Both the position numbers and the translations under genes were made by a program. Of a DNA stretch of 64,000 bases, positions 13,657 through 51,601 are shown one piece after another (the stretch's first letter is position 1; every line of letters begins with the position of its first letter). The DNA comes from Escherichia phage JES2013: sequence record KC690136. One strand, 5' to 3'. Under the pieces are notes generated by a model. That model saw nothing but the letters and a program-made list of their open reading frames with translations, made no database searches and was not told the origin of the DNA.

Positions 13657-13860
13657 TTGGAGACCGCAATGACACTAAAGTTAACAGTTCCAGACAGCTT
13701 TTCAGAAAACTTTATCCCAGAAATGATGGATAAGATGCGATCATTGCTTGATCAGATTGAAGAGGCTGTTTGGGAAGACGATGCTGTAGTGGCTAACGAG
13801 CTGGTAGATAAGTGTAAAAGTATTATTGATGCAGTTGAAGAATACCACGGAGGTTTTTGA
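13657..13860 (+). CDS. Hypothetical acidic protein
   Basis: 67-aa ORF. Confidence 0.4.
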   Translation: METAMTLKLTVPDSFSENFIPEMMDKMRSLLDQIEEAVWEDDAVVANELVDKCKSIIDAVEEYHGGF

Positions 13861-14474
13861 TGGATATTATTGTTCTTAACGCCCCACCTAGTAGTGGTAA
13901 GGATCACATTGCAGATCTCTTGTTGGAAGCTATTCCTAACTCACACCATCGTGAGGTTAAGGAGATGCTCTTCAGCGTGGCAATTAAGGCAGCTGGTGTA
14001 ACTCCTCAACTCTGGAATGCACTTTATGACCGCCACTACAAAGAAGAGCCTTGCCCTTTCTTAATGATAGACGGTAAGCATGTTTCTCCGCGAGAGTGGA
14101 TGATCCATTGTAGTGAAAATCTGATTAAACCTATCTTTGGTGAAGATGCTTTCGGTAAGGCCGCAGTCACATCCTTGAAGAAAGATTTCCCTAAAGGTAA
14201 AGGGGTTGTTGTTTACTCCGATGGTGGATTCAAAGAGGAGCTGGCATGCCTTAGTGAGTACGCATACAGCACAGGTGGAGATCTGTTGTTGTTCCGTATT
14301 CACCGTGTTGGATATGACTGGGGAAATGATTCCAGAACCTATCTAAGTCTGGAAAAGAACGGAATAAAAGGGATTGAGTTCGATGTTGTAAATCCTGAAG
14401 GTGCACCTTGGGAATGTGCATCGGAGATTGTGTGCAAGTATATTGATGCTAAAGAGGCCCAAGAAGAATGTTAA
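13857..14474 (+). CDS. dNMP kinase-like P-loop protein
   Basis: IIVLNAPPSSGKDHIADLL resembles T4 gp1 LSGVKRSGKDTTADFI. Confidence 0.5.
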   Translation: MMDIIVLNAPPSSGKDHIADLLLEAIPNSHHREVKEMLFSVAIKAAGVTPQLWNALYDRHYKEEPCPFLMIDGKHVSPREWMIHCSENLIKPIFGEDAFGKAAVTSLKKDFPKGKGVVVYSDGGFKEELACLSEYAYSTGGDLLLFRIHRVGYDWGNDSRTYLSLEKNGIKGIEFDVVNPEGAPWECASEIVCKYIDAKEAQEEC

Positions 14475-15062
14475 TCGGAATTGATGTAGATTTGACACTG
14501 GTAGATTCAGGAACAGCATGGTGGGAGTGGTTGGAGCGTTTGTATGGTCCAGCCAGTAAGACAGTCGTTAAACCTTCTAATGGGCTGATGTATTACGATC
14601 TGTCAAAGTATTGGCCTGATCGCCCCAAAGAAAACATCATAGGACCTTTTGATTTCTGGAGTGATCCGTTCCTCTACGACTTTCTTAAGCCTGAAGAGGG
14701 GGGCTATTGAGGTTATGAAAGATTTGGTGGCTCGCGGTCACAAGCTCGCATTTATCTCGGTATGCAAGAAAGGTCACCTTGCATCTAAATCAAGGTTCTT
14801 AAAGCGTTGGACCAGTGATTTTATGGATCTGGATGATCACACCCAGGGTCACGGCTTCTACGCCACACATTTTAAAGGAAATGTGGCTGTAGATGTTATA
14901 ATTGACGACAGGCATGAATACCTGAACCAATTCGCTTCACGACCTGAAGTTATTAAAATCCTAAAAGATACGCCTTATGAGCAATTTGAGGAGTTAAAGG
15001 TCAGTGTTGACTATACCGCTGATAGCTGGTATAAAATAGGAAAGTTTTTAGAAGGTATTTGA
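14468..15062 (+). pseudogene. HAD-family phosphatase (nucleotidase-like) split between two frames at a poly-G tract
   Basis: ORF 14468-14710 has HAD motif I IDVDLTLVD; ORF from 14649 has HAD core and IIDD motif; frames join at GAGGGGGG near 14693-14701. Confidence 0.45.
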
Positions 15063-15063
15063 A

Positions 15064-15264
15064 ATGGGCAGATGTTCTAAAGGTGGCGATCCTGTAGTCA
15101 GATACGGTGACTGGCTAGAGGTGTATGATCTGGGAGGTAAGCTAGTGTATGCCTCCAGGATCACCCAAGATATGTGCTCTGACATGTTTAACAGATACCT
15201 TGCATTTAAGGCCAACATAAACCCAGACGAAATTTCCAAAATTAAAACAAGGAGAGCTAAATAA
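15064..15264 (+). CDS. Hypothetical protein
   Basis: 66-aa ORF. Confidence 0.4.
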   Translation: MGRCSKGGDPVVRYGDWLEVYDLGGKLVYASRITQDMCSDMFNRYLAFKANINPDEISKIKTRRAK

Positions 15265-16247
15265 TGCTAAAACTGTGCACTGCAAAGATTATTGCTGACA
15301 GCATTTCCGAGAAAGGTAAGCGTATCACCACTTTTGAACTAGAGTATCCTCGAATTATTCACTCAGAGCTTATGACGCACCGAGTGTTCAGCCGAAACGC
15401 CATGTCTTCCCGTGCAGTGCCTGTCGGCAAGATGCTGCAACAGATTGTGGAGAATCCGGCAATGCCAGTTCGCTTCGGTGTAAATAAGCGAGGGATGGAA
15501 GATGGTGGGGAACACGATCAAAAGATCCGTGTAGAGTACACTGACATGGAGTTAACTCCTGAAGAGTTTTGGAAAGAAGCTGCAAAAAACGCCGCTTGGC
15601 ATGCAGAGAAGTTCGCCCTTGCTGGTTACCATAAGCAAGTATGTAACCGTTTAGTGGAGCCGTTTCAGCGCATGAAAACAGTTGTAACAAGCACAGAGTG
15701 GAATAATTTCTTCCATCTCCGTTGCTGGCACGATGCTGACCCTACTATTCAGATGTTAGCGAATTGCATGTGGGAGGCTCTTATGAATAGCACTCCTGAA
15801 ATCCTTAAACCTGGTCAATGGCACACACCATATGTAGAGCACGTTTATTTGGACGGCGAGTTTAACTATGCTGTACGTGACACAGAAGGAAAGCTTTGCA
15901 TTCTCGATACTGGAGAAGCTCTGTCTATTAGTGCTAGTTGCTGTGCACAAGTATCTTATCGAAATATTGACAGCACGTTTGAAAAGGCAGACAGTGTGGC
16001 TAAAAAACTAATTGGTGGGGATCGTATTCATGCAAGCCCTTACGAGCACCAGGCAACACCTATGGATCATGATAACGCAATGGAACGTTTAAACTACTAC
16101 CTGTCTTCATGTGAAATCACACAAGACATTAGTACTTGGCAGGAAGGTGTAACCCATCAAGACCGTGATGGTAAATTCTGGTCTGCCAACTTTTGTGGGT
16201 GGGTTCAGCACAGACAGCTGCTTAATAACCACTTCGTGAAAGGTTAA
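15264..16247 (+). CDS. thyX: Flavin-dependent thymidylate synthase ThyX
   Basis: ThyX signature RHR-x7-S present as THRVFSRNAMSSRA. Confidence 0.8.
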   Translation: MLKLCTAKIIADSISEKGKRITTFELEYPRIIHSELMTHRVFSRNAMSSRAVPVGKMLQQIVENPAMPVRFGVNKRGMEDGGEHDQKIRVEYTDMELTPEEFWKEAAKNAAWHAEKFALAGYHKQVCNRLVEPFQRMKTVVTSTEWNNFFHLRCWHDADPTIQMLANCMWEALMNSTPEILKPGQWHTPYVEHVYLDGEFNYAVRDTEGKLCILDTGEALSISASCCAQVSYRNIDSTFEKADSVAKKLIGGDRIHASPYEHQATPMDHDNAMERLNYYLSSCEITQDISTWQEGVTHQDRDGKFWSANFCGWVQHRQLLNNHFVKG

Positions 16248-20490: not shown

Positions 20491-20769
20491 ATGAGCTGTG
20501 AAAAATCTTTTTTCTTTATTATTTACGGTAAAGATAACTGCCCACATTGTGTAAGAGCAAAAGAATTTGCAGTCAGTAAAGGTCTGCCTTTTGTATATAA
20601 GACACTTGGCGAGGGTTACACAAAAGAAGAGCTTATCGAGAAGTGCAGTCCAATCGTACCCAGAACGTTGCCGCAGATCTTCTTAGAAAGCAATCTTGAA
20701 AGTGTCCATATAGGCGGTGCCGACGATTTCATCTCTTTTGTTAAGAATGGTTTTGGAGAGAAAAAGTGA
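20491..20769 (+). CDS. Glutaredoxin/NrdH-like redoxin
   Basis: CPHC active site in IIYGKDNCPHCVRAKEF; sits between aerobic and anaerobic RNR genes. Confidence 0.7.
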   Translation: MSCEKSFFFIIYGKDNCPHCVRAKEFAVSKGLPFVYKTLGEGYTKEELIEKCSPIVPRTLPQIFLESNLESVHIGGADDFISFVKNGFGEKK

Positions 20770-22889
20770 AAGTTGTAAAACGGGACGGTAGAGAAGAGGT
20801 CTATAACGGAATTAAGGTGATCAAGGCGGCAGAGTCCGCCTTACTTGAGTCTGGACATACTGAAGAAGAAGCTTACCGGATCGCCTGCGCGGTTAATGAA
20901 GTTGTTGCTAACAATCTACCAACCGACCAGTGCACGATCTCTGTAAAAAATATCCATATCCTTGTTGAAGACGCTCTTATGGATATGGGTTTAAAATGTG
21001 CAGCCAGAGAATACATCCAGTATAGGCAGACAAGAGATAATAACAGAGAGGCAGGTGGAAAACTGCTTGCAGATATTAGTGGCTTCTTGGATCGCACTTG
21101 TGATGAATTTACAAAAGAAAACGCAAATAAGCCTACCAATCATGTACACACTCATCGTGACCTGCTTGCAGGCATCCTTAGCAAACACCTTGCATCAACA
21201 CAGATCCTGCCAGACCGTGTCTCAGAAGAGCACAATAAAGGCTTCATCCATGTGCATGATCTTGACTACTTGATCAGTCCGTTAACAAACTGTTGTTTGG
21301 TAAATTATCCAGATATGTTGGAAAACGGATTCAACATTGGCAACGCCCATGTCAGTAAGCCGAAGTCAATAGGGGTTGCAACAACAATCCTTAGCCAAAT
21401 CTCTAGTGCAGTAGCTAGTGCTCAATATGGAGGTCAGACTATGAGCCATATTGATCATTATCTGGCACAGTATGCTGAGGCGACCTATGAGAAGAATCTT
21501 AAATTTTGCCAGGAACACTGGTTGCCAGATGCTGAGACTGTTGCAATGCAAATGACAGATAAAGACGTATTTGACAGCATGCAGACTTTGCTCTATCAAA
21601 TCAATACGTTAACCTCTGTCAACGGGCAAACTCCATTCATCACATTAAGTTTAGGACTGGATACCTCGGTCTTTGGTAGAATGATTACCAAAAACTACTT
21701 GAAAGTCCACAAAATGGGTCTTGGTGAAGAACGTATCACACCTGTGTTCCCTAAAGTGCTGTTCTTCCTAGAAGAGGGTGTCAACATGAGCCCTGGAGAT
21801 CCCAACTATGATTTGAAACGATTAGCTCTGGAATGCTCTGCAGAGCGGATTTATCCTGACTTTGTTTCTGTTCCACTAAATCGTAAAGTGACAGGCTCGA
21901 CAGATGGCAAAGTAACGAGCATGGGTTGCCGGAGTTTTCTTAGCAAATACAATGACTTGGAAACAGGCGAGGAGAAATACCTTGGTAGATTTAACTTAGG
22001 CGTTGTTAGCCTTAACCTGCCAATGATTGCGGCAAAAGCTAAAACGGAAGGTGTTGATTTCTTTGCAGTTCTTGACGAATACCTGGATCTTGCATACGAG
22101 GCTCACCTTGTAAGGGTTAACCGTCTAAAAGGAACAAAGGCAGGGCAGAACCCTATCATGTGGTGTGAAGGCGCTCTTGCTCGCCTGGATCCTGAAGAGA
22201 GTATTGATAAACTCTTCTATGACGGGTACGCTTCCATCAGTATTGGGTATATTGGTGTGTATGAAACCTGTCAGATTTTGGGCAGGGAGGGTGACAAGGC
22301 TTTAGCTCTTGGAATACTCCAGCACATGAGAGATGCTTGTGAGCGATACAAGAAGGAAAGTAGACTAGCGTTTAGCTTGTACGGCACCCCTTCTGAGAGT
22401 CTATGCTATAAAGCTGCAACCTGTCTGGATCGTGAATATCCTGAAGTGTTGAAGCATGAGCATGAATACCTCACCAACAGTTTCCATCAGCCAGTATGGA
22501 TAAATAGCTCTCCTTTTGATAAGTGGGAATACGAGGAAGGTTTTGCTATGATCTCCTCTGGTGGCAACATCGGATACGTAGAGACACCAAATCTGAAAAA
22601 CAACTTAGATGCTTTAGAGGCTCTTGTTGACTTCGGGTATAAACACATTATGTATTTTGGTATCAACCAGCCTGTGGATAAATGTCTTAAGTGTGGTTTC
22701 TCTGGTGAGTTCAGTGCAACAGCTAAGGGATTCGTATGCCCGGAGTGTGGAAACCATGAAGAGGGAACGATCAGTGTGATCAGACGTGTATCCGGGTACC
22801 TGTCTAGTCCAAACTCCCGTCCTTACAATAAAGGTAAGCAAGCGGAAGTTATAGAACGGGTTAAGCACTACGGAAGTTGTGGTTGCTGA
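20766..22889 (+). CDS. nrdD: Anaerobic ribonucleoside-triphosphate reductase
   Basis: 707 aa; C-terminal glycyl-radical-like RRVSGYL and zinc ribbon CLKCGF...CPECGN; followed by activase. Confidence 0.85.
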   Translation: MKVVKRDGREEVYNGIKVIKAAESALLESGHTEEEAYRIACAVNEVVANNLPTDQCTISVKNIHILVEDALMDMGLKCAAREYIQYRQTRDNNREAGGKLLADISGFLDRTCDEFTKENANKPTNHVHTHRDLLAGILSKHLASTQILPDRVSEEHNKGFIHVHDLDYLISPLTNCCLVNYPDMLENGFNIGNAHVSKPKSIGVATTILSQISSAVASAQYGGQTMSHIDHYLAQYAEATYEKNLKFCQEHWLPDAETVAMQMTDKDVFDSMQTLLYQINTLTSVNGQTPFITLSLGLDTSVFGRMITKNYLKVHKMGLGEERITPVFPKVLFFLEEGVNMSPGDPNYDLKRLALECSAERIYPDFVSVPLNRKVTGSTDGKVTSMGCRSFLSKYNDLETGEEKYLGRFNLGVVSLNLPMIAAKAKTEGVDFFAVLDEYLDLAYEAHLVRVNRLKGTKAGQNPIMWCEGALARLDPEESIDKLFYDGYASISIGYIGVYETCQILGREGDKALALGILQHMRDACERYKKESRLAFSLYGTPSESLCYKAATCLDREYPEVLKHEHEYLTNSFHQPVWINSSPFDKWEYEEGFAMISSGGNIGYVETPNLKNNLDALEALVDFGYKHIMYFGINQPVDKCLKCGFSGEFSATAKGFVCPECGNHEEGTISVIRRVSGYLSSPNSRPYNKGKQAEVIERVKHYGSCGC

Positions 22890-37844: not shown

Positions 37845-38005
37845 TCTGGTGCACGATTGCATACCTTGGACAGATAATCTCCTTACAGAGCGTTTAAGAG
37901 CTTCCTACAAACAACTCTCTTTTTCGAGCGTAGCGAGAACGCACGTCCGTTTTGACCAAAATCACCATACGCTCGGATTTTAACCAAACCCTCGCGGCGT
38001 TTCTG

Positions 38006-38034
38006 TTGACACATTGCCGCTCCAGTGATAATAT
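38006..38034 (+). promoter_or_regulatory. Sigma70-like promoter TTGACA-N17-TAATAT
   Basis: Consensus hexamers; lies inside track ORF 37952..38365, so that ORF's 5' part is unlikely to be coding. Confidence 0.6.
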
Positions 38035-38054
38035 CCACACATCATTTGGAGAAT

Positions 38055-38156
38055 ATGGAATACACAATGAAAACATTGTCCGAAGTTTTAGTGGTGATCC
38101 TGATGATCATTACGTCCATAGCGGCTGTTGCCGGAATACTCACGGGTGGAACATGA
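38055..38156 (+). CDS. Small membrane peptide (33 aa)
   Basis: sORF MEYTMKTLSEVLVVILMIITSIAAVAGILTGGT; GGAG SD; stop overlaps next ATG (ATGA). Confidence 0.35.
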   Translation: MEYTMKTLSEVLVVILMIITSIAAVAGILTGGT

Positions 38157-38365
38157 TCAACACACATGCATCTGAAGAGACATCAAAAGGAGTGACTATA
38201 TGTCCCTTGGCTGAGCCAGTGAAAGAGGAAAACTTCGATTCTGAAGATTCTCCATCTTCGCTCCAGGTAGACCCTGAGGCTGATGACCTAACGTGGGAAG
38301 ACATCGTAGATATCTGGTTCTCTGTTATGCCTGAGCACGAAGAGTTCAGGGGTGGTAGACTATGA
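38153..38365 (+). CDS. Hypothetical acidic protein
   Basis: 70-aa ORF translationally coupled to upstream peptide. Confidence 0.4.
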   Translation: MINTHASEETSKGVTICPLAEPVKEENFDSEDSPSSLQVDPEADDLTWEDIVDIWFSVMPEHEEFRGGRL

Positions 38366-38486
38366 AGCACCGAGCCCACACAAGTTCCTCATGCTAAAGC
38401 ATGGCCTGAAGAGGCAAACGTGCATAATTCCTGTGCATCGGAACGTATGAAACCTTGTTCACACTCTCATTTCCAGAGGAGATTTT

Positions 38487-38702
38487 ATGAAGATAGAAAT
38501 ATTTGGTGGAGCTGACAACACTCGTGGCCTGATTTACCTTGAATTCGATGAATCATACCTACCAGAGGTGTTAAATATAGACTCTGTTGCGGAGGCTTTG
38601 GGAGTAAACCCTAAAGAACTCCACTCTTGTGCTGAGATCGATGGTTGGGAAGAGACCATGAACATTGATTTCAGTGAAGTAGAGGATGAACCGCTGGACT
38701 GA
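38487..38702 (+). CDS. Small acidic protein
   Basis: MKIEIFGGADNTRGLIYLEFDE...; last gene of rightward block. Confidence 0.5.
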   Translation: MKIEIFGGADNTRGLIYLEFDESYLPEVLNIDSVAEALGVNPKELHSCAEIDGWEETMNIDFSEVEDEPLD

Positions 38703-39541
38703 CACACAATTAGCTGCCCGGCTAAAGTGCTGGAAGCACCTATAACACATCTTTCAACTAAATTTCCCACCACAACAATCACTTACCTCCCATACATGAC
38801 TGTTTGCTTGTTTAGTGAGCAGTCATGCCTTGACATTCTTGCCTATCCTGATAAAATTAAGTTCTTCTCTTTTCTTTTACCGAGTAATTCGGGTTTTCTG
38901 TTCTCTTCGGTTTGAAGGGGTATGGAGATACACCTGAGTGAACAGGGTGAACAACCGAACATTTGGCTATGGCATTAGCATGGCGAAGCGGACGGGTGAC
39001 GAAAGAGGGGCCGGAGGACACCAGTCACTGCCATATGGTATATGGGTGATAACCTGAAGAGTCTGAATAAGTGTTTAAGTACCAGTCAGAGGAAAAGGTG
39101 AATGGTAGCCGAAGGGGGAGGGGGGTTTCTTGTATCTTTAATTTGTATATTATGTATACACTTGTAAACCAATCTCATTTGAATTTGTTTACCACACAAA
39201 GTGGATAGAGACAAATATTACCTATTAAACTTGAATTATTTATAGAAAATACCACAACACTACTTAAGTCTTTGATTTTACACACAAATCCTGCAGATAT
39301 TCACCCTCCATATTTAACATACTTGTAACATATTCCATACTCTACCTGCCCGATCAATTCACCCAACTACATCCCCATATTTTCCCTGTCTGTACTACCC
39401 CTGCCCCGCCGGGAGTCCCGTCATATCTGGCTTTCCAGCAAATATCACACCCACAAATATCATTGCCTGAAGAGGGTTTCGTCCCATAATACATGCCTTA
39501 CCTGAAGAGCGCTTCATATACCCCGTAAATTTTTTAATTGA

Positions 39542-39574
39542 CCCCCTCCCCGCCGCCGGAGGGGTCGGCTTTTC
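39542..39574 (+). terminator. Terminator-like hairpin CCCCTCC-ccgccgcc-GGAGGGG + TCGGCTTTT
   Basis: GC-rich stem followed by T tract in gene-free region. Confidence 0.5.
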
Positions 39575-40120
39575 CCACACAGACCTGAAGAGTCAGCCAG
39601 AAATATCTGAATGGACCCAATTCTGCCCTGTTATGAGCCGTAGCGACTGGAGTGCTGCCAGGCGGACGAAATGGGAATACTTCTCATTCTTATAACAATT
39701 CTCAAATATCGAGGCAGTGAGGCAAATTAATAGGTAAGGCCGTTCACATAGTGGCACAACATTTGCAGTCTATCTGATGTGGTTGAATGAGAATACCTAT
39801 CATTGTGAGAATAGTTATCATTACGGGCAATTTAACATAATACCCATTATGCGCACCACTGGCGATACATACAGGGATTGATAACATGAGTTACTGTTTA
39901 CGCATATAACAATTATATTTCTTATCATTTGTGTGGGATATAGTTAGCAGCCGATAGATTAGATATTGACCTGCGGACTTCTGACCGTCTAGACGTCTAA
40001 ACGCCCACACAACAAGGCTTATACATACATCGCTGAATGTAAACATGGCCGCAAAAATGCTACCATACAAGATTGTAAATTTTTCATGCAGCACTTGACA
40101 AAGAGGAGAAAAACTTGTCT

Positions 40121-40162
40121 GACACTTTAGACATACTGGTGACACAATATGACACTTTAGAC
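40121..40162. repeat. Direct repeat GACACTTTAGAC (two copies, 30 bp apart), followed by iterated TGTTTAC/TGTTCAC motifs to about 40360
   Basis: Exact 12-mers at 40121 and 40151; at least eight (A)CTGTTTAC-like motifs in the next 200 bp. Confidence 0.55.
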
Positions 40163-40449
40163 TTAATTGACATGCCTGACTGTTTACGCTGTCACTATTC
40201 GCGCTATTACTATTCACTCCCTTTACTGTTCACGCTCTTACTGTTTACATGCTTAATGGTTTACATGCTTAATAGACTGCATGTCTAATAGTTTACATAG
40301 CTAACTGTTCACATACTTATCATTTACATGATTGACTGTTTACACAGAGATGATAAGCCATGACATTCGTTTGCATGACAATAATTAACAAGATAACAAT
40401 TGACAAGCTAACAGCCAACAAGCTGACAATTAACTTGTTTACAATAGAT

Positions 40450-40615
40450 GACATAATATAAAAGCAGGGCAACTATTAGAAGATCTATAGTTGCCTTGCT
40501 TGTTATGTCATGATTAACTAAATACAAGGCAACTATGATCTGATTAATAGTTTGCAAACAAACTATCACGGGGGTGATGGTTACTGCTTTTATATTATGT
40601 CGCGACTCCGTCGCG
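40450..40615. repeat. Nested inverted repeats: 18-bp arms GACATAATATAAAAGCAG / CTGCTTTTATATTATGTC around palindrome GGCAACTAT-N10-ATAGTTGCC, plus CGCGAC-tcc-GTCGCG
   Basis: Arms at 40450-40467 and 40584-40601 are exact reverse complements; inner palindrome 40468-40495; GGCAACTAT also recurs at about 40517 and 40634. Confidence 0.6.
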
Positions 40616-41295
40616 CCATGCCATTCGTTTGCATAGTTGCCTTATTGTTACAGATAAAATAATTGTATTGTTAATTATTTCTTATCTTTCTATTAGTCAT
40701 CTAATGATTCCAGTCAATATAGTAATGTACAGTAAACATTAGACGACTAAAGATTTATCTGCTTATAATAACTTACCGTGACAATTTCGGACTGTTTACG
40801 AAAAATGTTGGCACCTAAGCTGATTTATGTTATGCAGTTTACACGAATAATTATTTTATGCAGGTATTGACTATTCCATTATTCTATGGTTGGAATAAAT
40901 ACTTAGCAGACTATAGAATGGTGAGCGTACGTAAATTCTGAGATCTGGCGGCTATAGTTATACTCGATTTTTCACGTAGAGCACGCTTTTGTGGTTATGT
41001 AAGTGTATGACTTATAAAGATTTTTAGTTGTTGACAAGACACTGAAGATATGCATCAGGTTAAATTTTGTGCAATAGCTGCATTACGTGCAATTTTGGAA
41101 GGAAAAACGGGTAAAAATAGCCCTGCTACCACACAATGAAAAGTTATGCAATAGTTATTTTACATGTATATTTGTACAGTGTGTGGGGTTGATGGCTCGT
41201 CAATTATTCCACTTGCCAGGTAGGGCCGTTTATGGTAGGGGGAAGATCAGACAAAAAGAAAGGGGCCTAAGCCCCTTGATAATTCAGTTAAAAAA

Positions 41296-41715
41296 TTATA
41301 ATGATTCGTATATTTCAAAAATCCGATTTGCCAGGTCGTTACGGTACCGGAATTTTTCATCACGTTTGATCATAAGATCTTTATAGCCGTACTCTTTAAG
41401 CACTTCATTAACTTTATGGCGGCACACCTTCATATTATCCTGAGCGTCACCAATAAACCTGTTGCTATGGTGCATGGCTTTAATTTCTTCTTCCAGGACC
41501 AGGGCAACTATGCGGACCGGATCAAGCTGATAGGCGGTAACATCAATGCGGCATTGTAAACGGCTTTTTACGTCTGCCACCGGATATACTGCAACCTCTT
41601 CCCCGTCAACATTGACAATAATTAGTTTACCATCGATTTCGAATCCTTTCGCCGCCGGACCGTGACAAAAAGCGTTATCAAAGCTATATGCCGGATTATT
41701 AGATTTAATGTTCAT
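41296..41715 (-). CDS. Hypothetical protein
   Basis: 139-aa ORF; last gene of leftward block. Confidence 0.5.
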   Translation of the reverse strand: MNIKSNNPAYSFDNAFCHGPAAKGFEIDGKLIIVNVDGEEVAVYPVADVKSRLQCRIDVTAYQLDPVRIVALVLEEEIKAMHHSNRFIGDAQDNMKVCRHKVNEVLKEYGYKDLMIKRDEKFRYRNDLANRIFEIYESL

Positions 41716-41860
41716 GGTGTTTTTACCTCTTAGTTAATTTTCTTACAACTTCCCTTTAAAAAAGAATATAGCAAAACTGCCGATCCTTGTCAATAAGGAT
41801 AGCATAATTTTTATGTGATCAAGGGGCTTTATTGCCCCCCTGACCATGTAACTTGTTGTA

Positions 41861-42124
41861 TTATTTGTTATTCATCCAGTTTTCCCAAGCTGCCTGATAA
41901 TCTGCTTCACTGCGGCGGATCTCTTCTTGCTCTTCAAGTCGGATCTCTTCTTCCAGGTACCCCAGGATATCGGCTTTTTTGGTCTGGCGTAACATCCAAT
42001 CATCTTTTTTACGGGTAAAGATCTTATATGCTTTCTCGCAAACCTCTTTTTTGCTACCTTTTTGGACTTCAAGAACTTTGTAGGCCATGTACTGAACTAG
42101 TTTGAGCTGATCAAGACGTTTCAT
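41861..42124 (-). CDS. Hypothetical protein
   Basis: 87-aa charged ORF. Confidence 0.45.
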   Translation of the reverse strand: MKRLDQLKLVQYMAYKVLEVQKGSKKEVCEKAYKIFTRKKDDWMLRQTKKADILGYLEEEIRLEEQEEIRRSEADYQAAWENWMNNK

Positions 42125-42184
42125 GATGTTTACCTCTTTATGCGGTTCTGATTAGTGGGCCTTTTGGCCCGTGTCATTATCTTA

Positions 42185-42457
42185 TTACTTATGGCGGCAG
42201 AATTCAAGCGTTTTTAATTGATAATCTTCCTCAGCCTGGAGTACGACCGCCTCGATCATTTCGTTGGCATTGTTAAAGCCATAACCTTTAGCGAAATCAT
42301 CCGCGCCACCTTCGTGATCATGTTCTGCGTTCATCGCTTCCACAAAATGGAATTCCAAATTGTTGAGGTAGGGGCTTGATGTTCCGTCCTCTTTTTCGAT
42401 GAGATCCCAAATAGCATTAAAACGTGATTCTACTTCTTGATTAATCCAGCTTGACAC
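42185..42457 (-). CDS. Hypothetical acidic protein
   Basis: 90-aa ORF. Confidence 0.5.
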   Translation of the reverse strand: MSSWINQEVESRFNAIWDLIEKEDGTSSPYLNNLEFHFVEAMNAEHDHEGGADDFAKGYGFNNANEMIEAVVLQAEEDYQLKTLEFCRHK

Positions 42458-42668
42458 AGTGTTTTCCTCTCTTCTGGTTGTTGTGTGGGCACTTTTGCCC
42501 CTTCAAGATAAATGTTACCCCACCCCATGGCAGATGTCAACGGTTTTTATAGTTCTTATATGACAGGCAGGCCCGGTGATTGTCTCCCCCCGTCGCCAGG
42601 TGCCTGCCGTGAAACAAGTATAACAAAAAACAGGACCATTGCAAGCCCTGTTTTGTAGTTTATAAATA

Positions 42669-42860
42669 TTATATTTTTTCGCCTATGTAGTCCGGTCGGT
42701 TTTTCTCTGTCATGCGCTTTAGCAATTCTTGCATGTTGCTTATGGCTTGTAGTGTATCCCCTTCCAGGCTTGAATCGACATAATCAGGATCGTCTATGAC
42801 CTTTCTATGATTATGATAACGCAGTACCGCCAATACCTTTCTGACTTGTTCGATATTCAT
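42669..42860 (-). CDS. Hypothetical protein
   Basis: 63-aa ORF. Confidence 0.45.
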   Translation of the reverse strand: MNIEQVRKVLAVLRYHNHRKVIDDPDYVDSSLEGDTLQAISNMQELLKRMTEKNRPDYIGEKI

Positions 42861-43009
42861 TTTTACCGCTCTTTAAAACAAGGTGCCAACCGTTTCCAAT
42901 AGATCACTGACTGCCAGGACAATACCGATCAGCACATATCTAACCATAAGGGGAAAGAGCGCCAATATTGCCACCACAATCCCCAAGGTGATAATTATCT
43001 TTCTCATGG

Positions 43010-43294
43010 TTAACGGTTCACGTAAGTTTTCCCGTTCACGGTTATGGGCAGATCCTCCAGGTCTGGATCTTCCTTAAGGTCGCGAGCAAGCTCACCGCAC
43101 CGGATACCCTCGAATCCGTAGTACTCTGTTGTGCCGTCCTTAAAAGTTTTAGCGGCAAGGCATAAGCGATAAGTAACCCCGATTTGATTGACGGCATGAA
43201 TATCCGTTAGATTAACCTCTTTTGCCAGCTCTTTAGCCATTACAGGCGCATTAAGTCCAACAACCAGGGCAACCACTGCGATCATCTTTTTCAT
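43010..43294 (-). CDS. Secreted/periplasmic small protein with signal peptide
   Basis: MKKMIAVVALVVGLNAPVMA-KE resembles a Sec signal peptide with AxA-like cleavage site; start refined to ATG after GAGG. Confidence 0.5.
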   Translation of the reverse strand: MKKMIAVVALVVGLNAPVMAKELAKEVNLTDIHAVNQIGVTYRLCLAAKTFKDGTTEYYGFEGIRCGELARDLKEDPDLEDLPITVNGKTYVNR

Positions 43295-43385
43295 TGTGTC
43301 CATCCTCTTTCTGCTACGTTTAAGGCGGCGGTAACCGCCTGTTTATGCTTTGTTGGTTAATTTTCGGGTATAGGTATAAATTAAA

Positions 43386-43601
43386 CTATGCTGTACGCTC
43401 AACTATAACAACGGCTTGAGGGATCTCACCTTCAACCACTATCAAGGCTTTTTTCTGCGTGATAGATATCTTTACCCGCTTCAGCGTGGCGGTAAAATCT
43501 TTCATTTCGTCACGTGGTGTTTTAGTGCAATACCAGATCTCAGGCTTGCCGATCTGTAAGTTGCGTAAAAATTCTGTTTTGCCTGTTTTGTTAGTGATCA
43601 T
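43386..43601 (-). CDS. Hypothetical protein
   Basis: 71-aa ORF. Confidence 0.45.
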   Translation of the reverse strand: MITNKTGKTEFLRNLQIGKPEIWYCTKTPRDEMKDFTATLKRVKISITQKKALIVVEGEIPQAVVIVERTA

Positions 43602-43610
43602 TTGGCAACC

Positions 43611-43715
43611 TCACCCGATACCGTTGGAAGACAAGATCGCATTAGCCATGGTTGCAATCAGGCCAATACCCAGGGCAATAACCAAGATCACTGCATCGAT
43701 TAATTTCTGTTTCAT
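43611..43715 (-). CDS. Small membrane peptide (34 aa)
   Basis: sORF MKQKLIDAVILVIALGIGLIATMANAILSSNGIG in gap between listed ORFs. Confidence 0.3.
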   Translation of the reverse strand: MKQKLIDAVILVIALGIGLIATMANAILSSNGIG

Positions 43716-43792
43716 GGTGTTTATTCTCTTCTGTTAGTAACCTTATTCATGGGGCCGCTACCACAGCCCCAAGGTAAGGCAGCTATGTGCTT

Positions 43793-44038
43793 TTAGTGTT
43801 TCATTCCAACCATCGCGGCACGGATCGCCGTAGTGCTGTACTTGAAGCCGTCCGGGGTCTTATCTTGTCCGGTTAGCTCCAGAAAAAGCATCATATCCCG
43901 CGCCGCATCATTACGATTAGCATTGGCGTTAATAAAGCCTTGGGCCAACCGGTACAATGACTCATCGTTATTAATCCAAAGGCTTACATTCCAATGAGTT
44001 TTGTTTTTGTAACCGTTATAACCTTTATTGCTTTTCAT
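43793..44038 (-). CDS. Hypothetical protein
   Basis: 81-aa ORF. Confidence 0.45.
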   Translation of the reverse strand: MKSNKGYNGYKNKTHWNVSLWINNDESLYRLAQGFINANANRNDAARDMMLFLELTGQDKTPDGFKYSTTAIRAAMVGMKH

Positions 44039-44385
44039 GGTGTTTACCTCTTCTTTGTTCCAGGTGGCGGATCATTCTACCACCTTATGTATTATGCTTT
44101 GTTAGATGGTTGTTTGTTGTCAAACTATTTTACCGATAATCATCATATGCTTTATTTACCTGGCGAATATAACATTCAAAAGCCAAATCAATAGATTTAT
44201 ATTCACGGATATACTCACCATAGGAAACCACATACATTTCTATAGCTTCCTCATATGCGAGGAGAATAGAATCTAAGCCTACGATCTCAGTCTTTGCAAT
44301 AATAGCCATGATTTTTTATCCTCTTTGTGGTTGGTGGGGTTCGTTGCCCCCTTTGATTTATATATTACAGTCTTATATGGTCATG

Positions 44386-44619
44386 TCAACTATTTTCAAA
44401 AAATTTTTCTGCTGTGATATTCTTCCCGGTAGGGTTCGCTACTTTCAAAATTTTATCATGCACTGGACGCCCAAAAGAATAAGCGCCGTACACAGTAAAC
44501 CAATAATCGCCGTCAGGTTGTACTATTACTGCCGCATATGGTACGCCTTTTTCGTTTTTGCTGACAAAATAGATCACGTTGCCATTAATAGCCTCGGCGC
44601 GTTTAATTTGTTCCATCAT
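44386..44619 (-). CDS. Hypothetical protein
   Basis: 77-aa ORF. Confidence 0.45.
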   Translation of the reverse strand: MMEQIKRAEAINGNVIYFVSKNEKGVPYAAVIVQPDGDYWFTVYGAYSFGRPVHDKILKVANPTGKNITAEKFFENS

Positions 44620-44675
44620 GATGATTTGCCTCTCTTTATTTTCATAATTGGGGGGCCTTTTCGGCCCCGCCAGGT

Positions 44676-44960
44676 TTATTTATTGATAGCGTGCAGCGGG
44701 AAAGGTACGCCAGGTTGATAGATAACCTTTACAACCTCATCAGGACAAAAGAAGTTGCAGAACTCACCGCAATAGGCCTCATCCTCTTTCAACTCTTCAT
44801 CAACATACTCAAAAAAGTAGTCGATGCTTGGATAATCTTGACCAGGGTTATAATCAACCATAGTGAGGACCAGTTCAAGATCATTGCGGATGATATGCAT
44901 ACCAGCTTTTAAATACTTCGCTTCCATTTTTACTACATCGCCAGCGGTAACAATAGCCAT
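44676..44960 (-). CDS. Hypothetical acidic protein
   Basis: Start refined to ATG after AGGAG (MAIVTAGD). Confidence 0.45.
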   Translation of the reverse strand: MAIVTAGDVVKMEAKYLKAGMHIIRNDLELVLTMVDYNPGQDYPSIDYFFEYVDEELKEDEAYCGEFCNFFCPDEVVKVIYQPGVPFPLHAINK

Positions 44961-45185
44961 GGTTTTAACTCCTGTTTCTGTTAATGATTGGAGGCATAAC
45001 CCCCCTCGACAACTCTTATTATCCATATTGTAGGGCTTGATGCAAGTACTTCTTTAAAAAATTTTTAAGTGCCTTGGAGGCCGCTGTAACGCCAAAATAA
45101 TAAAGGCCATGCAACCGCATAGCCTTTATGTGATTATATCGCTGCAGGCCCTGCTAGGGGCCTTATTTTGCATCATTTGCCGGAA

Positions 45186-45494
45186 CTATACAGAGAAAAC
45201 ATCGTTCACAATAGCGATCACAATGCCGCCCACCTTGTCACGGTCAACAATGCACAAATCACCATAGATCATGTGGTAGTCTGGATGATCTTTCACGGAA
45301 TAGTCAATGAGCGTTTTCTTGTCGTCCAGCTTTGTAACTTCCATTCTCATAACGATATGAGAATCATCAAAGGCATTATTCCGAAAAGTCATAGCCTGAC
45401 CACCAGGGCACCCAGTGATCTCCACTTCCACACCGTCTACGATCTGACCATCAAAGAAATAAAGATTATTAGCCAGGATAAACATGTTTATCAC
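45186..45494 (-). CDS. Hypothetical protein
   Basis: 102-aa ORF; AAGGAG SD. Confidence 0.5.
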   Translation of the reverse strand: MINMFILANNLYFFDGQIVDGVEVEITGCPGGQAMTFRNNAFDDSHIVMRMEVTKLDDKKTLIDYSVKDHPDYHMIYGDLCIVDRDKVGGIVIAIVNDVFSV

Positions 45495-45534
45495 TCCTTG
45501 TTAACTGCGTGTTATTTTACCACGATTAAAATTT

Positions 45535-45578
45535 ACTTTACTGATGGCCCTGGCGTCAAGGCCATCTAAAAATAAATT
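45535..45578 (-). promoter_or_regulatory. Conserved 45-bp module, copy 1: palindrome GATGGCC-N10-GGCCATC enclosing TTGACG, then TAAATT
   Basis: Near-identical to copies at 49277-49321 and 49898-49942; abuts upstream stop codon; read on minus strand. Confidence 0.5.
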
Positions 45579-45778
45579 TACAGGCCTACAATCTCTTTGA
45601 TTCGTTTAACTGCTGCCTCAGCGCCTTGGGGGTAGAAATTATGGTAACCGATCACGCGAGTGATACTAATCGCAGTTTGATGATCTTCATAATAGCCCTT
45701 GAAGATTTCTTGACCGTCAATCAGCACGGCAATTTTTTCTTCTTTTTTGAAGTTAATAACGCGGATATTGTTGCTCAT
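45578..45778 (-). CDS. Hypothetical protein
   Basis: 66-aa ORF. Confidence 0.45.
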   Translation of the reverse strand: MSNNIRVINFKKEEKIAVLIDGQEIFKGYYEDHQTAISITRVIGYHNFYPQGAEAAVKRIKEIVGL

Positions 45779-45919
45779 TTTGTTTCTCCTTTCTGGTTTT
45801 TGTGTTGGTGGGGATTAGCTCCCCGTTGATTATTATTATCCATATTTCGGACCGGATTGCAACACCCCGGAAGAAAAATTTTTTGAAAAAGTTAGGCCCC
45901 CAGGGATCGGGGGCCGTTA

Positions 45920-46039
45920 TCAGTTACTTACAGCGATAAAATACATCCCTACGCCTAACAATATTTCAAGGGCGATGATCTCAAGCCATACCATAACCCG
46001 GCGCACCTTATCGGTGCGGGGCTTATCCTTGGTTGTCAT
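45920..46039 (-). CDS. Small membrane peptide (39 aa)
   Basis: sORF MTTKDKPRTDKVRRVMVWLEIIALEILLGVGMYFIAVSN; strong SD AGGGGGAG. Confidence 0.3.
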   Translation of the reverse strand: MTTKDKPRTDKVRRVMVWLEIIALEILLGVGMYFIAVSN

Positions 46040-46281
46040 CGTCTCCCCCTTTCATCCTGGTAGTAGTGACGTGGTTTACAATGGCCCCCAGGAGTACCAT
46101 CACCACGCACATCACAAGAAAAATTATCTCTGTCGTTGTTCGATCCATTGTTATAAAATTCCTTAAGATCAGGCCTGAAAATAAAGCGTTCGTTATTGAA
46201 TCCATCACGCCAGGCGGCTGGCTTCAAATCTTCATCAAAGGGATTAATTAACGTGGTATTATTTAAACGGCTGGCCCACAT
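46036..46281 (-). CDS. Hypothetical Asn-rich protein (uncertain frame)
   Basis: One of two overlapping candidate frames between 46040 and 46258; no motif support. Confidence 0.25.
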   Translation of the reverse strand: MWASRLNNTTLINPFDEDLKPAAWRDGFNNERFIFRPDLKEFYNNGSNNDRDNFSCDVRGDGTPGGHCKPRHYYQDERGRR

Positions 46282-46630
46282 ATTTTCTATTCCTCTCAAA
46301 TAGGCGATCCGCCTCAGTTAAACAAATCTCATGGGCGTGATCTCTGGTTTTAGCTTCATCGAAAACCTGTTGTGCAAGGCTGCAGCGTAGGGAGACTGGA
46401 AGATCACTATAATAGGCGTTGACAAATGTTTGCGCGTCATACAGGTCGGAAAATACTTTACCCTTTCTATTATCGCCTTTGTCAACAATTGCAAGGATAA
46501 CAAGTACAATAGTTGCAACCACCCCCAGGAAAATAGATATAATAAACCATAAAAAGGCGGATCTACCCATCTTGCCAGCGATCCAGGCGTTAAACAAGGC
46601 AACTAATACGGCCAAAATAATAAATTCCAT
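46259..46630 (-). CDS. Membrane protein (two predicted TM helices)
   Basis: FIILAVLVALFNAWIAG and FLWFIISIFLGVVATIVLVILAIV; start refined to ATG after GAGGT. Confidence 0.5.
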   Translation of the reverse strand: MEFIILAVLVALFNAWIAGKMGRSAFLWFIISIFLGVVATIVLVILAIVDKGDNRKGKVFSDLYDAQTFVNAYYSDLPVSLRCSLAQQVFDEAKTRDHAHEICLTEADRLFERNRKYVGQPFK

Positions 46631-46694
46631 TCTATGTACCTCTTTTGCAGTTCTGTTTAACAATAAGGCGGCAAATATGCCGCCTGTTACCTGA

Positions 46695-47075
46695 TTAAAA
46701 ATTATCGCCGTAAATCTTTCCGCTTTCTGCCCACACCACCACGCGGGGCATACTATCCCACACGTCTTGTTTTAGATTGAGCGCGTGCAATTCTTCGGTG
46801 GTGCCCATACCAGGCACGGGCTGATTGTATACTGCAAAACGACCACCTGCATAATCATAGGCCAGGGTTAAATCACACTGAATCATCTTTTTGATCATGG
46901 CGTTGAGCATAGCGTTAGCCGCATACTGGTCACGTTTTAAAGGCAACTCTTTGATTAGTTTGCGATAGTTTTCAATGTGATCGCACACTGTTTCACGTGG
47001 AAGATCTTTCATATCCTCGCGAAAGGTAACCAGGTTAAACATAACGGTGTCAATAGCTTTAGTAGTGTTTTTCAT
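46695..47075 (-). CDS. Hypothetical protein
   Basis: 126-aa ORF. Confidence 0.5.
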   Translation of the reverse strand: MKNTTKAIDTVMFNLVTFREDMKDLPRETVCDHIENYRKLIKELPLKRDQYAANAMLNAMIKKMIQCDLTLAYDYAGGRFAVYNQPVPGMGTTEELHALNLKQDVWDSMPRVVVWAESGKIYGDNF

Positions 47076-47166
47076 AATGTTTTCCTCTTTGTTTTGTGTG
47101 GGGCAAACGTCTTGCCCCCCCTTGAGTTTTAATATAGCAAGTTTTTAGATTATTGCAACACTTTAT

Positions 47167-47790
47167 TTATGAAAAACTCATCTCTCCATATTCATCCACA
47201 TCAAACCGCCAATCATTGGCCTCAATAAGGCCGATCAGGTTTTCGGTAGTGAACTGTTCTAGATAGGCCTCCTCCAGGTCTACGTAAACCTTGCGGGATA
47301 GCTCCCGTACCGTCTCGGTGATCAGCTCTTCCAGGTCTTCCACTTTGTTTTCTTGTTTGGCGGTCAGATCTAGCCAGGTGGTATCAATGTATCCGCTTAC
47401 AGTGTTTTCATGGCTGTAATGGCTGTACTTGTCGCGTTCAATACTGGCTGATAACTCGCCATCGTGCATTGTGCCAAACAAGTGACGAATTGATCGGAAC
47501 TTGGTCAGGGCCTTTACTTTACGCAAGAATTTTTCTAAATCCACGTTTTCAGCACTGATTGACGCGCCGTCACCCTGGCACCAAAAGCCGGACCAATGTA
47601 CATCGGTATCTTCAAGGCCGTACTCTGGAAAAACTTGCTCTTTATAATATTCAATTACACTTTCTGCGAAAAAATCCTCTCCGCTGTGTTCTTCTCTTTC
47701 GCGGACCATTTCAATAGCTTTTTCTTTTTGTTCGTCGGTCAGCACGTCGAAAGATAAATTGCAACCTGTGGTAATGTTAACGGTGGTCAT
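47167..47790 (-). CDS. Hypothetical acidic protein
   Basis: 207-aa ORF; no recognised motif. Confidence 0.5.
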   Translation of the reverse strand: MTTVNITTGCNLSFDVLTDEQKEKAIEMVREREEHSGEDFFAESVIEYYKEQVFPEYGLEDTDVHWSGFWCQGDGASISAENVDLEKFLRKVKALTKFRSIRHLFGTMHDGELSASIERDKYSHYSHENTVSGYIDTTWLDLTAKQENKVEDLEELITETVRELSRKVYVDLEEAYLEQFTTENLIGLIEANDWRFDVDEYGEMSFS

Positions 47791-47819
47791 GATATTTTCT
47801 CCTGTTTTCTTTGTTAGTG

Positions 47820-47838
47820 GCGGGAAGTTTTCCCGCCT
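47820..47838 (-). promoter_or_regulatory. 5'-UTR stem-loop GGCGGGAA-aac-TTCCCGCC between promoter and RBS
   Basis: Perfect 8-bp stem; same architecture upstream of 49664 and 50339 genes. Confidence 0.5.
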
Positions 47839-47847
47839 GTGTTTTTA

Positions 47848-47875
47848 ATTATACTTATTGAGATTTACTTGTCAA
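47848..47875 (-). promoter_or_regulatory. Sigma70-like promoter TTGACA-N16-TATAAT (minus strand)
   Basis: Consensus hexamers on the reverse complement, upstream of 47790 start. Confidence 0.5.
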
Positions 47876-48125
47876 CACTATTTTTTAAATTATTGTGGCG
47901 CAAAATGTTTAAAATCTCTTCAACGTCATCAACACGGCGGCAATTTTTAAACGCTACCAATTGCCCCATGATTTTAATCACTGGGCGGCCTTGCCAGTGC
48001 CCCTGGAGAAAGCGCGCCTTGACTTTATCAGTGGAACTATCACGCCACCAAACGGCCTTGTTATTGCAGTAGTAAAAATTATTCAGGACAATATCAACTT
48101 TATCAAAATTTTTTAATTTACGCAT
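47865..48125 (-). CDS. Hypothetical protein
   Basis: 86-aa ORF. Confidence 0.45.
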   Translation of the reverse strand: MRKLKNFDKVDIVLNNFYYCNNKAVWWRDSSTDKVKARFLQGHWQGRPVIKIMGQLVAFKNCRRVDDVEEILNILRHNNLKNSVDK

Positions 48126-48370
48126 AGTGTTTACTCCTTCCTTCTTGCTTTGATGTGGTTAGTATATCCGGACTATTCCAAGGTGTCAAGCTTTAAATAA
48201 AATCACTGTCAATGATATTTTTAACACCATAAAACGGCCCTGGGTGATGTTTTCAGGCTAAGAAAGGGGATTGCATAGGTAGGGGCTTTTGTGGCGTTTG
48301 TGGGGCCAACCAGGGGCGCTATTCGTAGGATAGAAATAAAAAGCCCCGCACAATGGCGGGGCGTTGGTTG

Positions 48371-48568
48371 TTATTTGTCTTTATGGCGGTATCGTTCCGC
48401 TTGTCGTTCACGTTCCAAAAGTAGGCCCGGCAATTTACGATCATAATGATTCCGCCAGATCTTCCCAAATCTTTTTGGCTTATTCAGTTTATTGTTGCGC
48501 TGGCGGCGTTCCGGCAACTCTTCGGAATCATGAGATCGCTTTACAATTTTCTCAAAATTAATCTTCAT
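48371..48568 (-). CDS. Hypothetical basic protein
   Basis: 65-aa Arg/Lys-rich ORF. Confidence 0.4.
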   Translation of the reverse strand: MKINFEKIVKRSHDSEELPERRQRNNKLNKPKRFGKIWRNHYDRKLPGLLLERERQAERYRHKDK

Positions 48569-48930
48569 ATATTCCCACCCTTGCTAACTTCAATATTGGC
48601 CTGAATCGCCCGGATACGGCGTTTTATAACCTCCTGATCCGTGCAATCGTATCCCCAAAAGTCTACAATTTTCGCGCCGCCAGCTTTTAAGCGGTATAAT
48701 GTTTCTTGCATTTTGTAAGCTGGGATCGGTCGCGGTGTTACCTGGTCGCCTTTTTCATCCTTGTACTTGATTATGTAGTCCTCGTTGTCGTTGAATACCC
48801 AAAAAGGGTACTCTGTAAGGGCGTTGCTTTCTTTTTCGTTTTTAGATTGGATCTTGTTTACAATTAAAGCCGTAGCAATAGCGCCAATAATAAAACTAGC
48901 CCCGCTGATCATGTTACTTTCTCCTTTCAT
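48565..48930 (-). CDS. Membrane-anchored protein
   Basis: N-terminal TM ISGASFIIGAIATALIV. Confidence 0.45.
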   Translation of the reverse strand: MKGESNMISGASFIIGAIATALIVNKIQSKNEKESNALTEYPFWVFNDNEDYIIKYKDEKGDQVTPRPIPAYKMQETLYRLKAGGAKIVDFWGYDCTDQEVIKRRIRAIQANIEVSKGGNI

Positions 48931-48987
48931 TGTGTTGATAAACTATCTTTATAGATGGCCCTGTTACCAGGACCACCGAAAAAATAA

Positions 48988-49233
48988 CTATTTCACAATG
49001 CCTACAAAACAGATCCCGCCTTCACCTATATAGGCAATATCGGTAATTTTATAATTTGTCAAGATCCGCGTGTTCAGATCATTAATAAAATCGGTCATCG
49101 CGTTGGTGTAGTTGTCTTCCGTGTCTAAGGCATAATCCCAGGTGTAAACCTTTTTACGTCCGAAGCCTTTTACCATGATACGGGCGCTTTTGGTGTTGGT
49201 AGGGGCATAATATTTGGTGATTAGTGCTGCCAT
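48988..49233 (-). CDS. Hypothetical protein
   Basis: 81-aa ORF; GGAG SD. Confidence 0.45.
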   Translation of the reverse strand: MAALITKYYAPTNTKSARIMVKGFGRKKVYTWDYALDTEDNYTNAMTDFINDLNTRILTNYKITDIAYIGEGGICFVGIVK

Positions 49234-49276
49234 GGTTTTAACTCCTCTGAATTAGTTCAGTGTTAACAGTATAAAG

Positions 49277-49321
49277 TTTACTTTATTGATGGCCCTGAAG
49301 TCAAGGCCATCTAAAAATAAA
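49277..49321 (-). promoter_or_regulatory. Conserved 45-bp module, copy 2: GATGGCC-N10-GGCCATC around TTGACT, then TAAACT
   Basis: Same element as 45535-45578; abuts stop of 49323..49664. Confidence 0.5.
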
Positions 49322-49322
49322 C

Positions 49323-49664
49323 TTACTCGTTTTCTTCCAGCTCCGCAAGCTCTTCTTTTGCTTCTTCTAACTCTGTCTGTAGTTCCTGGTATTCTTCATC
49401 GTCCTCAATATCCAGGCTGTCGATGTAGTCGCTAAATCCGCAGCGGTAAGCGATAGGATCTAGCTCCTTGAGGATACGCGACGGAAGAAAAGAAATGTTT
49501 CCGATCATAATTTCGCCGTAGATCTCGTCTAACCATTCATCATAGTTTTCGTCGTACTTGTCCTCGTCGATTTCAAAGTTATCGATCTTGTTCTCAAGGT
49601 CTGCGATCTGTTTTTTCAGCGCGGCGATCTGCATAGCTTTTTCTGCGGCGGTCATAGTAGTCAT
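49323..49664 (-). CDS. Hypothetical acidic coiled-coil protein
   Basis: 113-aa ORF; preceded by promoter TTGACA-N16-TATACT and hairpin GGGAA-aac-TTCCC. Confidence 0.5.
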   Translation of the reverse strand: MTTMTAAEKAMQIAALKKQIADLENKIDNFEIDEDKYDENYDEWLDEIYGEIMIGNISFLPSRILKELDPIAYRCGFSDYIDSLDIEDDEEYQELQTELEEAKEELAELEENE

Positions 49665-49743
49665 GGTGTTTTCTCCTTTTGTGTGCTCTGGGAAGTTTTC
49701 CCGTTTACGTGTTTAAGTATAGCGATCTAAGTTAGTTTGTCAA

Positions 49744-49863
49744 TTAAAAATTTAAGAAAAATTTTGCAAAACTGTTAGCGCTACTCATTAACATTTGCGC
49801 CAGGATGTAACCAATGATGCAAACGATAATAGTTACCTTTGTGTGCTGGCGTGTAGTACTCAT
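49744..49863 (-). CDS. Small membrane peptide (39 aa)
   Basis: sORF MSTTRQHTKVTIIVCIIGYILAQMLMSSANSFAKFFLNF; SD GAAAGGGGGG. Confidence 0.3.
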   Translation of the reverse strand: MSTTRQHTKVTIIVCIIGYILAQMLMSSANSFAKFFLNF

Positions 49864-49897
49864 CTTTAAGCCCCCCTTTCCGCTCAACTGTGGTTAG

Positions 49898-49942
49898 TTT
49901 ACTTTATTGATGGCCCTGGAGTCAAGGCCATCTAAAAATAAA
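49898..49942 (-). promoter_or_regulatory. Conserved 45-bp module, copy 3: GATGGCC-N10-GGCCATC around TTGACT, then TAAACT
   Basis: Same element; abuts stop of 49944..50339. Confidence 0.5.
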
Positions 49943-49943
49943 C

Positions 49944-50339: not shown

Positions 50340-50422
50340 AGCTTTTCCTCTGTGTTGGCGGGATGTTTCCCGCCTTTTGTGTCTAGTTTACTTGAATTTT
50401 GCAGCGTGTCAATAATTTTTTT

Positions 50423-50821: not shown

Positions 50822-50885
50822 GATTTTATCCTCTTAGTGTCTTTTGTGATTTCAGTATATTTTGTGTCGGGGCGTATGTCAATAC

Positions 50886-51083: not shown

Positions 51084-51161
51084 GATTTTTTATCCTCTCT
51101 GTTAATTAGTGTGGTGTTGTTCACCTTGCGAGGATAAGAATAACAAGAACTGTCCGAGCTG

Positions 51162-51590: not shown

Positions 51591-51601
51591 TTATCATTAT
51601 C
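51591..51601. promoter_or_regulatory. Fur-box-like motif TTATCATTATC (module 1)
   Basis: Exact 11-mer of the reverse complement of E. coli Fur consensus GATAATGATAATCATTATC. Confidence 0.3.

Follow-up and report, generated by a model that had tools for sequence, protein, structure and literature searches.

A one-base expansion of a G run splits a deoxyribonucleotidase-like gene in the lineage of Escherichia phage JES2013

The locus described here lies in a 64,000-nucleotide stretch of Escherichia phage JES2013 (sequence record KC690136), hereafter the window, and all of its features run on the plus strand. It belongs to a nucleotide-metabolism module. The upstream neighbour of the locus is a deoxynucleoside monophosphate (dNMP) kinase gene (13857–14474; phrog_139, 2.6e-44), the stop codon of which overlaps the start of the next ORF in the sequence ATGTTAA. 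On the downstream side, a 66-residue ORF separates the locus from the gene of the flavin-dependent thymidylate synthase ThyX (15264–16247; phrog_85, 6.8e-113), which is followed by nrdA, nrdB, grx, nrdD and nrdG.

The locus itself consists of two halves of one phosphatase gene in different reading frames. The first half, ORF1 (14468–14710, 80 residues), begins with MLIGIDVDLTLVD, ends with KPEEGGY* and encodes an N-terminal fragment of a HAD/NT5C-like phosphatase, namely strand β1 with motif I (D6-V-D8-L-T10) and the cap insert. From the ATG at 14468, its frame reads CTT AAG CCT GAA GAG GGG GGC TAT TGA through a run of six G residues (14698–14703), which is contained in the string GAGGGGGG at 14696–14703. 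Alignments and G counts identify the extra G in this run as the frameshifting lesion, other rV5-like phages having five G at this place. The last two codons of ORF1 (GGC UAU) and its premature UGA stop (14708–14710) are out-of-frame sequence produced by the extra G.

The second half is found in the +1 frame relative to ORF1, which is open from 14649 to a stop codon at 15060–15062. From 14703 onward this frame reads AIEVMKDLVARGHKLAFISV...HFKGNVAVDVIIDDRHEYL..., and the downstream segment includes RGAIEVMKDLVARGHKLAFISV followed by VIIDDR. The segment (14703–15062) is homologous to residues 79–197 of the intact protein and contains motif II (S97), motif III (K136), motif IV (D146-D147) and the rest of the Rossmann-like core. 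Its first in-frame ATG (14715), located 4 nt past the ORF1 stop, opens a 115-residue ORF (MKDLV..., 14715–15062), the form annotated in JES2013 (Ec2_0099). The record of Escherichia coli O157 typing phage 4 (KP869102.1) annotates the downstream ORF from a mechanical TTG start at 14649 (137 residues), while ORF1 is annotated as Ec2_0098 in JES2013 and as ECTP4_00574 in typing phage 4.

Removal of a single G from the run creates an uninterrupted 594-nt ORF encoding 197 residues. The frame breaks at residue 78/79, immediately ahead of the helix leading into strand 2, and thus motif I and the cap are left in ORF1 while the remaining active site is in the +1 frame. An earlier note on this DNA had described a HAD phosphatase divided between two frames at 14468–15062 and fusible by a one-base change. 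Its ORF limits are exact, and both its placement of motif I in the first ORF (DVDLT) and of the HAD core with the IIDD motif in the other frame hold, as does the fusion by deletion of one G. It was also right that the frames meet at the G tract, although its coordinates for the tract (14693–14701) are 2–3 nt off.

The repaired 197-residue protein was compared with sequence families and known structures. It matches the Pfam family NT5C (PF06941) with 27.7 bits against a cut-off of 24.8 (E = 3e-6, profile positions 2–167 of 180), which bears out the HAD family assignment that the earlier note had left to a profile search. The separate halves stay below the gathering threshold of this family: ORF2, the downstream ORF, scores 17.1 bits, and ORF1 has no match. 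The repaired protein also matches phrog_420, a family of unknown function (1.2e-46). Compared by sequence with the PDB, the repaired protein had chance-level matches only, and in NCBIfam it had only a weak, sub-threshold HAD match. The family assignment is therefore based on the Pfam and PHROGs matches, on the motifs and on the fold of the model. Residues D6, D8 and T10 of motif I, S97 of motif II, K136 of motif III and D146-D147 of motif IV are invariant in eight homologues, down to 46% identity. The more distant homologues (47–80% identity) are single proteins of 196–201 residues, and six homologues (P0001 and P0004–P0008) have a precomputed PF06941 assignment.

The AlphaFold2 model of the repaired protein (pLDDT 84.1, pTM 0.77) has a confident HAD core of alternating strands and helices and a cap region (residues ~16–70) of lower confidence. 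It places motif I on strand E2–6, S97 on strand E92–97 and D146 on strand E143–146. At E ≤ 0.001, a Foldseek search with the model gave 63 matches in the PDB, and the best 50 of these 63 are nearly all HAD-fold enzymes. The top match is a Staphylococcus deoxyribonucleotidase-like protein (PDB id: 3bwv, E = 2.6e-7, TMq 0.64), followed by structures of the human mitochondrial deoxyribonucleotidase (4mwo, 1q92, 4l6a and 1mh9, TM 0.62–0.65) and then by generic HAD phosphatases.

Taken with the motif alignment, the model gives the repaired protein motif I, motifs II–IV and a Rossmann-like α/β core. In JES2013 the four motifs are not carried by a single polypeptide, as they are in the five relatives read. 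The repaired protein shares with members of the NT5C family (PF06941; cytosolic and mitochondrial 5'(3')-deoxyribonucleotidases such as human mdN, 1mh9 and 1q92, and the bacterial deoxyribonucleotidase-like 3bwv) the DxDxT motif, a Ser after strand 2, the Lys, a DD motif followed by an R/P-type sequence, and a Rossmann-like HAD core with a small cap. It differs from them in its low sequence identity (16–17%), in TM scores of 0.62–0.65 and in a Pfam score just over the threshold; the closest structures are deoxyribonucleotidases, but the similarity is moderate. The product of the repaired gene is a HAD-superfamily phosphatase of the NT5C, i.e. 5'(3')-deoxyribonucleotidase-like, type, and "nucleotidase-like", as the earlier note put it, is a fitting description. 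By resemblance to the family, and given a genomic context of dNMP kinase, ThyX and Nrd genes, its substrate would be a dNMP.

JES2013 is an rV5-like coliphage, typing phage 4 is an rV5-like Vequintavirus, and the locus is the orthologue of rV5 gp100 (YP_002003602.1). Like its Vequintavirus orthologues, it is positioned between the dNMP kinase gene and the small ORF that precedes ThyX. The DNA identity is ~98%, and the proteins differ by two or three residues once the JES2013 gene is repaired. Unlike the six-G, split (80 + 115 residues) gene of JES2013, the orthologues read have a run of five G and a single ORF of 197 residues, with which the repaired protein is collinear. The comparison with related genomes that the earlier note had suggested therefore yields one protein and not two: all five relatives read (rV5, 241Ecol014PP, phiWec193 and O157 typing phages 5 and 14) carry one annotated 594-nt CDS. 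It is named "HAD-like hydrolase domain" in rV5 (gp100), "haloacid dehydrogenase" in 241Ecol014PP, and 5' nucleotidase or deoxyribonucleotidase elsewhere. Between the repaired gene and five intact relatives there are 6–11 synonymous and 2–3 nonsynonymous codon differences, and no second lesion was found in this comparison. Since the differences are mostly synonymous and no further damage is present, the gene is under purifying selection in the family, and its disruption in JES2013 is recent.

The sixth G has a very narrow distribution. Alignments show five G in rV5, 241Ecol014PP, vB_Eco_Alma, typing phages 5 and 14 and an IMG/VR contig, and in the run JES2013 has exactly one G more than rV5, 241Ecol014PP and vB_Eco_Alma. 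A 901-nt query found 118 phage records, and among the matches listed all but typing phage 4 align over 900 nt; with an 86-nt query, 59 other records among the matches listed align over 85 nt. A 44-mer with six G, whose two flanks are each too short to seed a match to a five-G sequence, was found among 50,697 phage records (a collection without the JES2013 record) in KP869102.1 only, while the corresponding 43-mer with five G was found in 103 phage records. The six-G 44-mer was not found in complete E. coli genomes, nor was a six-G 30-mer found in IMG/VR, JGI metagenomes or GTDB genomes; a five-G 29-mer was found in one IMG/VR contig and three metagenome contigs.

Besides JES2013, only typing phage 4 and three re-assembled SRA runs have been seen to have six G. 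Typing phage 4 is 100% identical to JES2013 across the locus, and the exact 80- and 115-residue products are annotated in both. It was sequenced by a group separate from that of JES2013, on an Illumina MiSeq instrument with de novo assembly in Velvet (PMC4429339). The same two ORFs are found in the Logan re-assemblies of SRR1391165, SRR1391163 and SRR8399272, which are 100% identical to JES2013 over 20.3, 7.1 and 13.2 kb, respectively. Going by their accession numbers, SRR1391165 and SRR1391163 are presumably runs of the typing-phage project. Typing phages 5 and 14 went through the same MiSeq run and pipeline as typing phage 4, yet their tract has five G and lies in an intact ORF, so the G-run site is not systematically miscalled.

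These observations bear on whether the sixth G is a sequencing or assembly error and the true tract of JES2013 has five G with the gene intact, one of three causes that the earlier note had left open. Errors of this kind classically take the form of a one-base change in a homopolymer, typing phage 4 is on record as a "partial genome" built from Velvet contigs, and vB_Eco_Alma shows apparent error-type splits in both this gene and ThyX. Against this, six G occur in two separate records and in three Logan runs re-assembled with a different assembler, while five G were read in typing phages 5 and 14 of the same MiSeq run. All ORFs of rV5 and phiWec193 of at least 80 residues were searched with tblastn against the JES2013 window, and in its first ~50 kb the phosphatase gene is the only genuine gene split relative to these two phages. 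A generally error-ridden assembly was rejected on these grounds, the other flagged splits being antisense or spurious ORFs, and no further real gene is split by the remaining small indels that the DNA alignment showed. With six G recurring in two records and three re-assemblies and with no other genuine gene split in the first ~50 kb, a one-off sequencing error is unlikely, and we regard a true five-G tract in JES2013 as very improbable. A real six-G allele is the reading best supported by the assemblies. A mixed population of five-G and six-G genomes, or a site-specific systematic error common to the data sets, could conceivably also be behind them. JES2013 and typing phage 4 are near-identical and were probably derived from one stock, in which case the several sequencings record one mutational event.

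In vB_Eco_Alma (OV101294.1, 1008–1602), the same gene is split into 61 and 115 residues by a different one-base insertion, an extra A opposite window position ~14646, and the ThyX gene of this phage (1804–2485) is likewise annotated as two pieces. Together, the two splits suggest assembly error-type frameshifts and not biology. Nineteen GenBank records labelled "Campylobacter phage" (MG0656xx, host Campylobacter jejuni) are ~98% identical to JES2013 at 14300–15200; their host label looks doubtful, or else a coliphage was carried in the preparations.

The distribution of tract lengths also bears on phase variation, in which a population would switch between five G (gene on) and six G (gene off). 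Homopolymer tracts are the usual substrate of this process and a single slip restores the frame here, but the tract is short (5–6 bases) and its two lengths are strictly partitioned by lineage. All assemblies of the JES2013/typing phage 4 clone, and no others, have six G, while 103 records have five. Across the assemblies and records only these two lengths were seen, and a contingency tract is extremely unlikely.

The sequence around the new stop codon formally resembles recoding sites. In the release factor gene prfB (RF2), a +1 shift takes place at AGGGGG-UAU-CUU-UGA. JES2013 likewise has an SD-like AGGGGG just upstream of the codon preceding an in-frame UGA, and a +1 shift is needed for translation to continue. 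In contrast to prfB, the arrangement is not conserved in homologues and was produced by the mutation itself, the shift codon UAU lacks +1 re-pairing, and the spacing is wrong by 1–2 nt. G GGG GGC is a formal slippery heptamer for a −1 frameshift, but this route was rejected, as a stop closes the −1 frame after seven codons (RGGLLRL*); reading on into the downstream ORF takes a +1 or a −2 shift. Two +1 routes each yield a 197-residue protein. In one, tRNA-Gly slips from GGG at 14699–14701 to GGG at 14700–14702 and the ancestral sequence results; in the other, the shift takes place at UAU-UGA and two residues change, GGY replacing GAI.

Recoding could in principle rescue the gene if the +1 shift were frequent enough to supply working enzyme. 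In addition to the two routes to a 197-residue product, the insertion creates a prfB-like AGGGGGG-C-UAU-UGA and the gene carries no additional damage. Several features argue against it. UAU re-pairs poorly on AUU, and the SD-like AGGGGG is 1–2 nt, not 3 nt, upstream of UAU-UGA. The zero-frame codon after GGG is the common GGC, and no pause is therefore expected. The 101 nt downstream, examined for a stimulatory RNA structure, fold no better than shuffled sequences (z = −0.35). Furthermore, a tract of six G is on the short side for E. coli RNA polymerase to slip during transcription. Conservation, the mark of a programmed frameshift, was not found either: the 103 five-G records, in which those read have one ORF, stand against six G in the JES2013/typing phage 4 clone only. 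The slippage-based expression proposed earlier as another of the three causes of the split is thus unsupported as a programmed mechanism, and functional rescue by recoding is unlikely. At most a trace of +1 read-through would be expected. That the gene has not decayed further may nevertheless also be compatible with a function kept through low-level +1 shifting. A related and very improbable idea is that the six-G allele is not null and that the chance prfB-like context, combined with perfect re-pairing on the GGG-G quadruplet, lets a useful fraction of ribosomes make the full-length enzyme. If so, the six-G run would be a recoding site of reduced output that has only just come into being in a laboratory lineage of phages.

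The two fragments might also be thought to join non-covalently into an active phosphatase. The AUG at 14715 is preceded closely by GAGG and stands 4 nt past the ORF1 stop, an arrangement that favours reinitiation, and in the model the break would lie in a loop before helix 79–88, between cap and core. From the sequence around this AUG, the 115-residue C-terminal fragment may indeed arise by termination-reinitiation. But none of the homologues compared is organised as two chains, and strand β1 would need to be inserted in trans into the central sheet, which leaves a two-polypeptide enzyme with hardly any likelihood.

The identity of the gene, the lesion, its confinement to one lineage and its recurrence across sequencing efforts are established. 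Most likely, the split is a real, lineage-specific change from five to six G by which a phage propagated in the laboratory has recently lost an accessory gene that it can spare. A true pseudogene, also among the causes that the earlier note had offered, is accordingly the best supported of the three. The run would have grown from five to six G by a slipped-strand replication error in this lineage. Translation would then stop at the UGA nine bases past the G run and release 80 residues comprising the DxDxT nucleophile motif and the cap, and motifs II–IV could be obtained only as the separate 115-residue fragment, by reinitiation at AUG 14715, or by a rare +1 shift. Neither fragment would contain the complete active site, and the enzyme is most likely lost or present at trace level. 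As the phage is still viable, the gene is dispensable in laboratory propagation.

The event is an ordinary lineage-specific gene disruption; it involves no programmed frameshift and raises no new biological question. Its main value is for annotation. In the two GenBank records the halves appear as hypothetical proteins with no relation to each other, and they should be merged into a single 5'(3')-deoxyribonucleotidase-like pseudogene with a frameshift, the orthologue of rV5 gp100. The case also points to an accessory nucleotide-metabolism gene that an rV5-like phage can do without when grown on E. coli O157 in the laboratory, and the JES2013/typing phage 4 lineage can conveniently be recognised by its six-G tract.

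Beyond the locus, JES2013 and KP869102.1 are 100% identical over window positions 145–38937. The next ~8.9 kb of JES2013 (38938–47813) are not at the corresponding place in KP869102.1, and the later segments (48597–56997) are 99.7% identical to it, with rearranged pieces. The discrepancy is probably due to contig joins in the "partial genome" record. The exact 423-residue product encoded at 56475–57746 on the minus strand is on record for JES2013 (NC_022323) only, as AGM12588.1. As a possible explanation for the missing stretch, tRNA genes were looked for at 38000–48500 of the window and none was found. A passage in PMC7431101 does not fit JES2013 as an rV5-like coliphage near-identical to O157 typing phage 4; a mis-citation is the probable reason.

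Other runs of at least six G or C in the window are G6 at 27306, 39120 and 44650, C6 at 41835, 42586, 45000 and 49871, and C7 at 47115. At 27306, 44650, 45000 and 47115 the run falls on an indel that distinguishes JES2013 from rV5 or phiWec193, and none of the runs splits a real gene of at least 80 residues. In phiWec193, ~800 bp (~21630–22426) with its own 177-residue CDS are inserted in nrdD, opposite window position 21625/21626, and the gene is annotated in pieces, while nrdD of JES2013 (20766–22889) is uninterrupted. The insert may be a mobile intron or a homing-endonuclease insertion.
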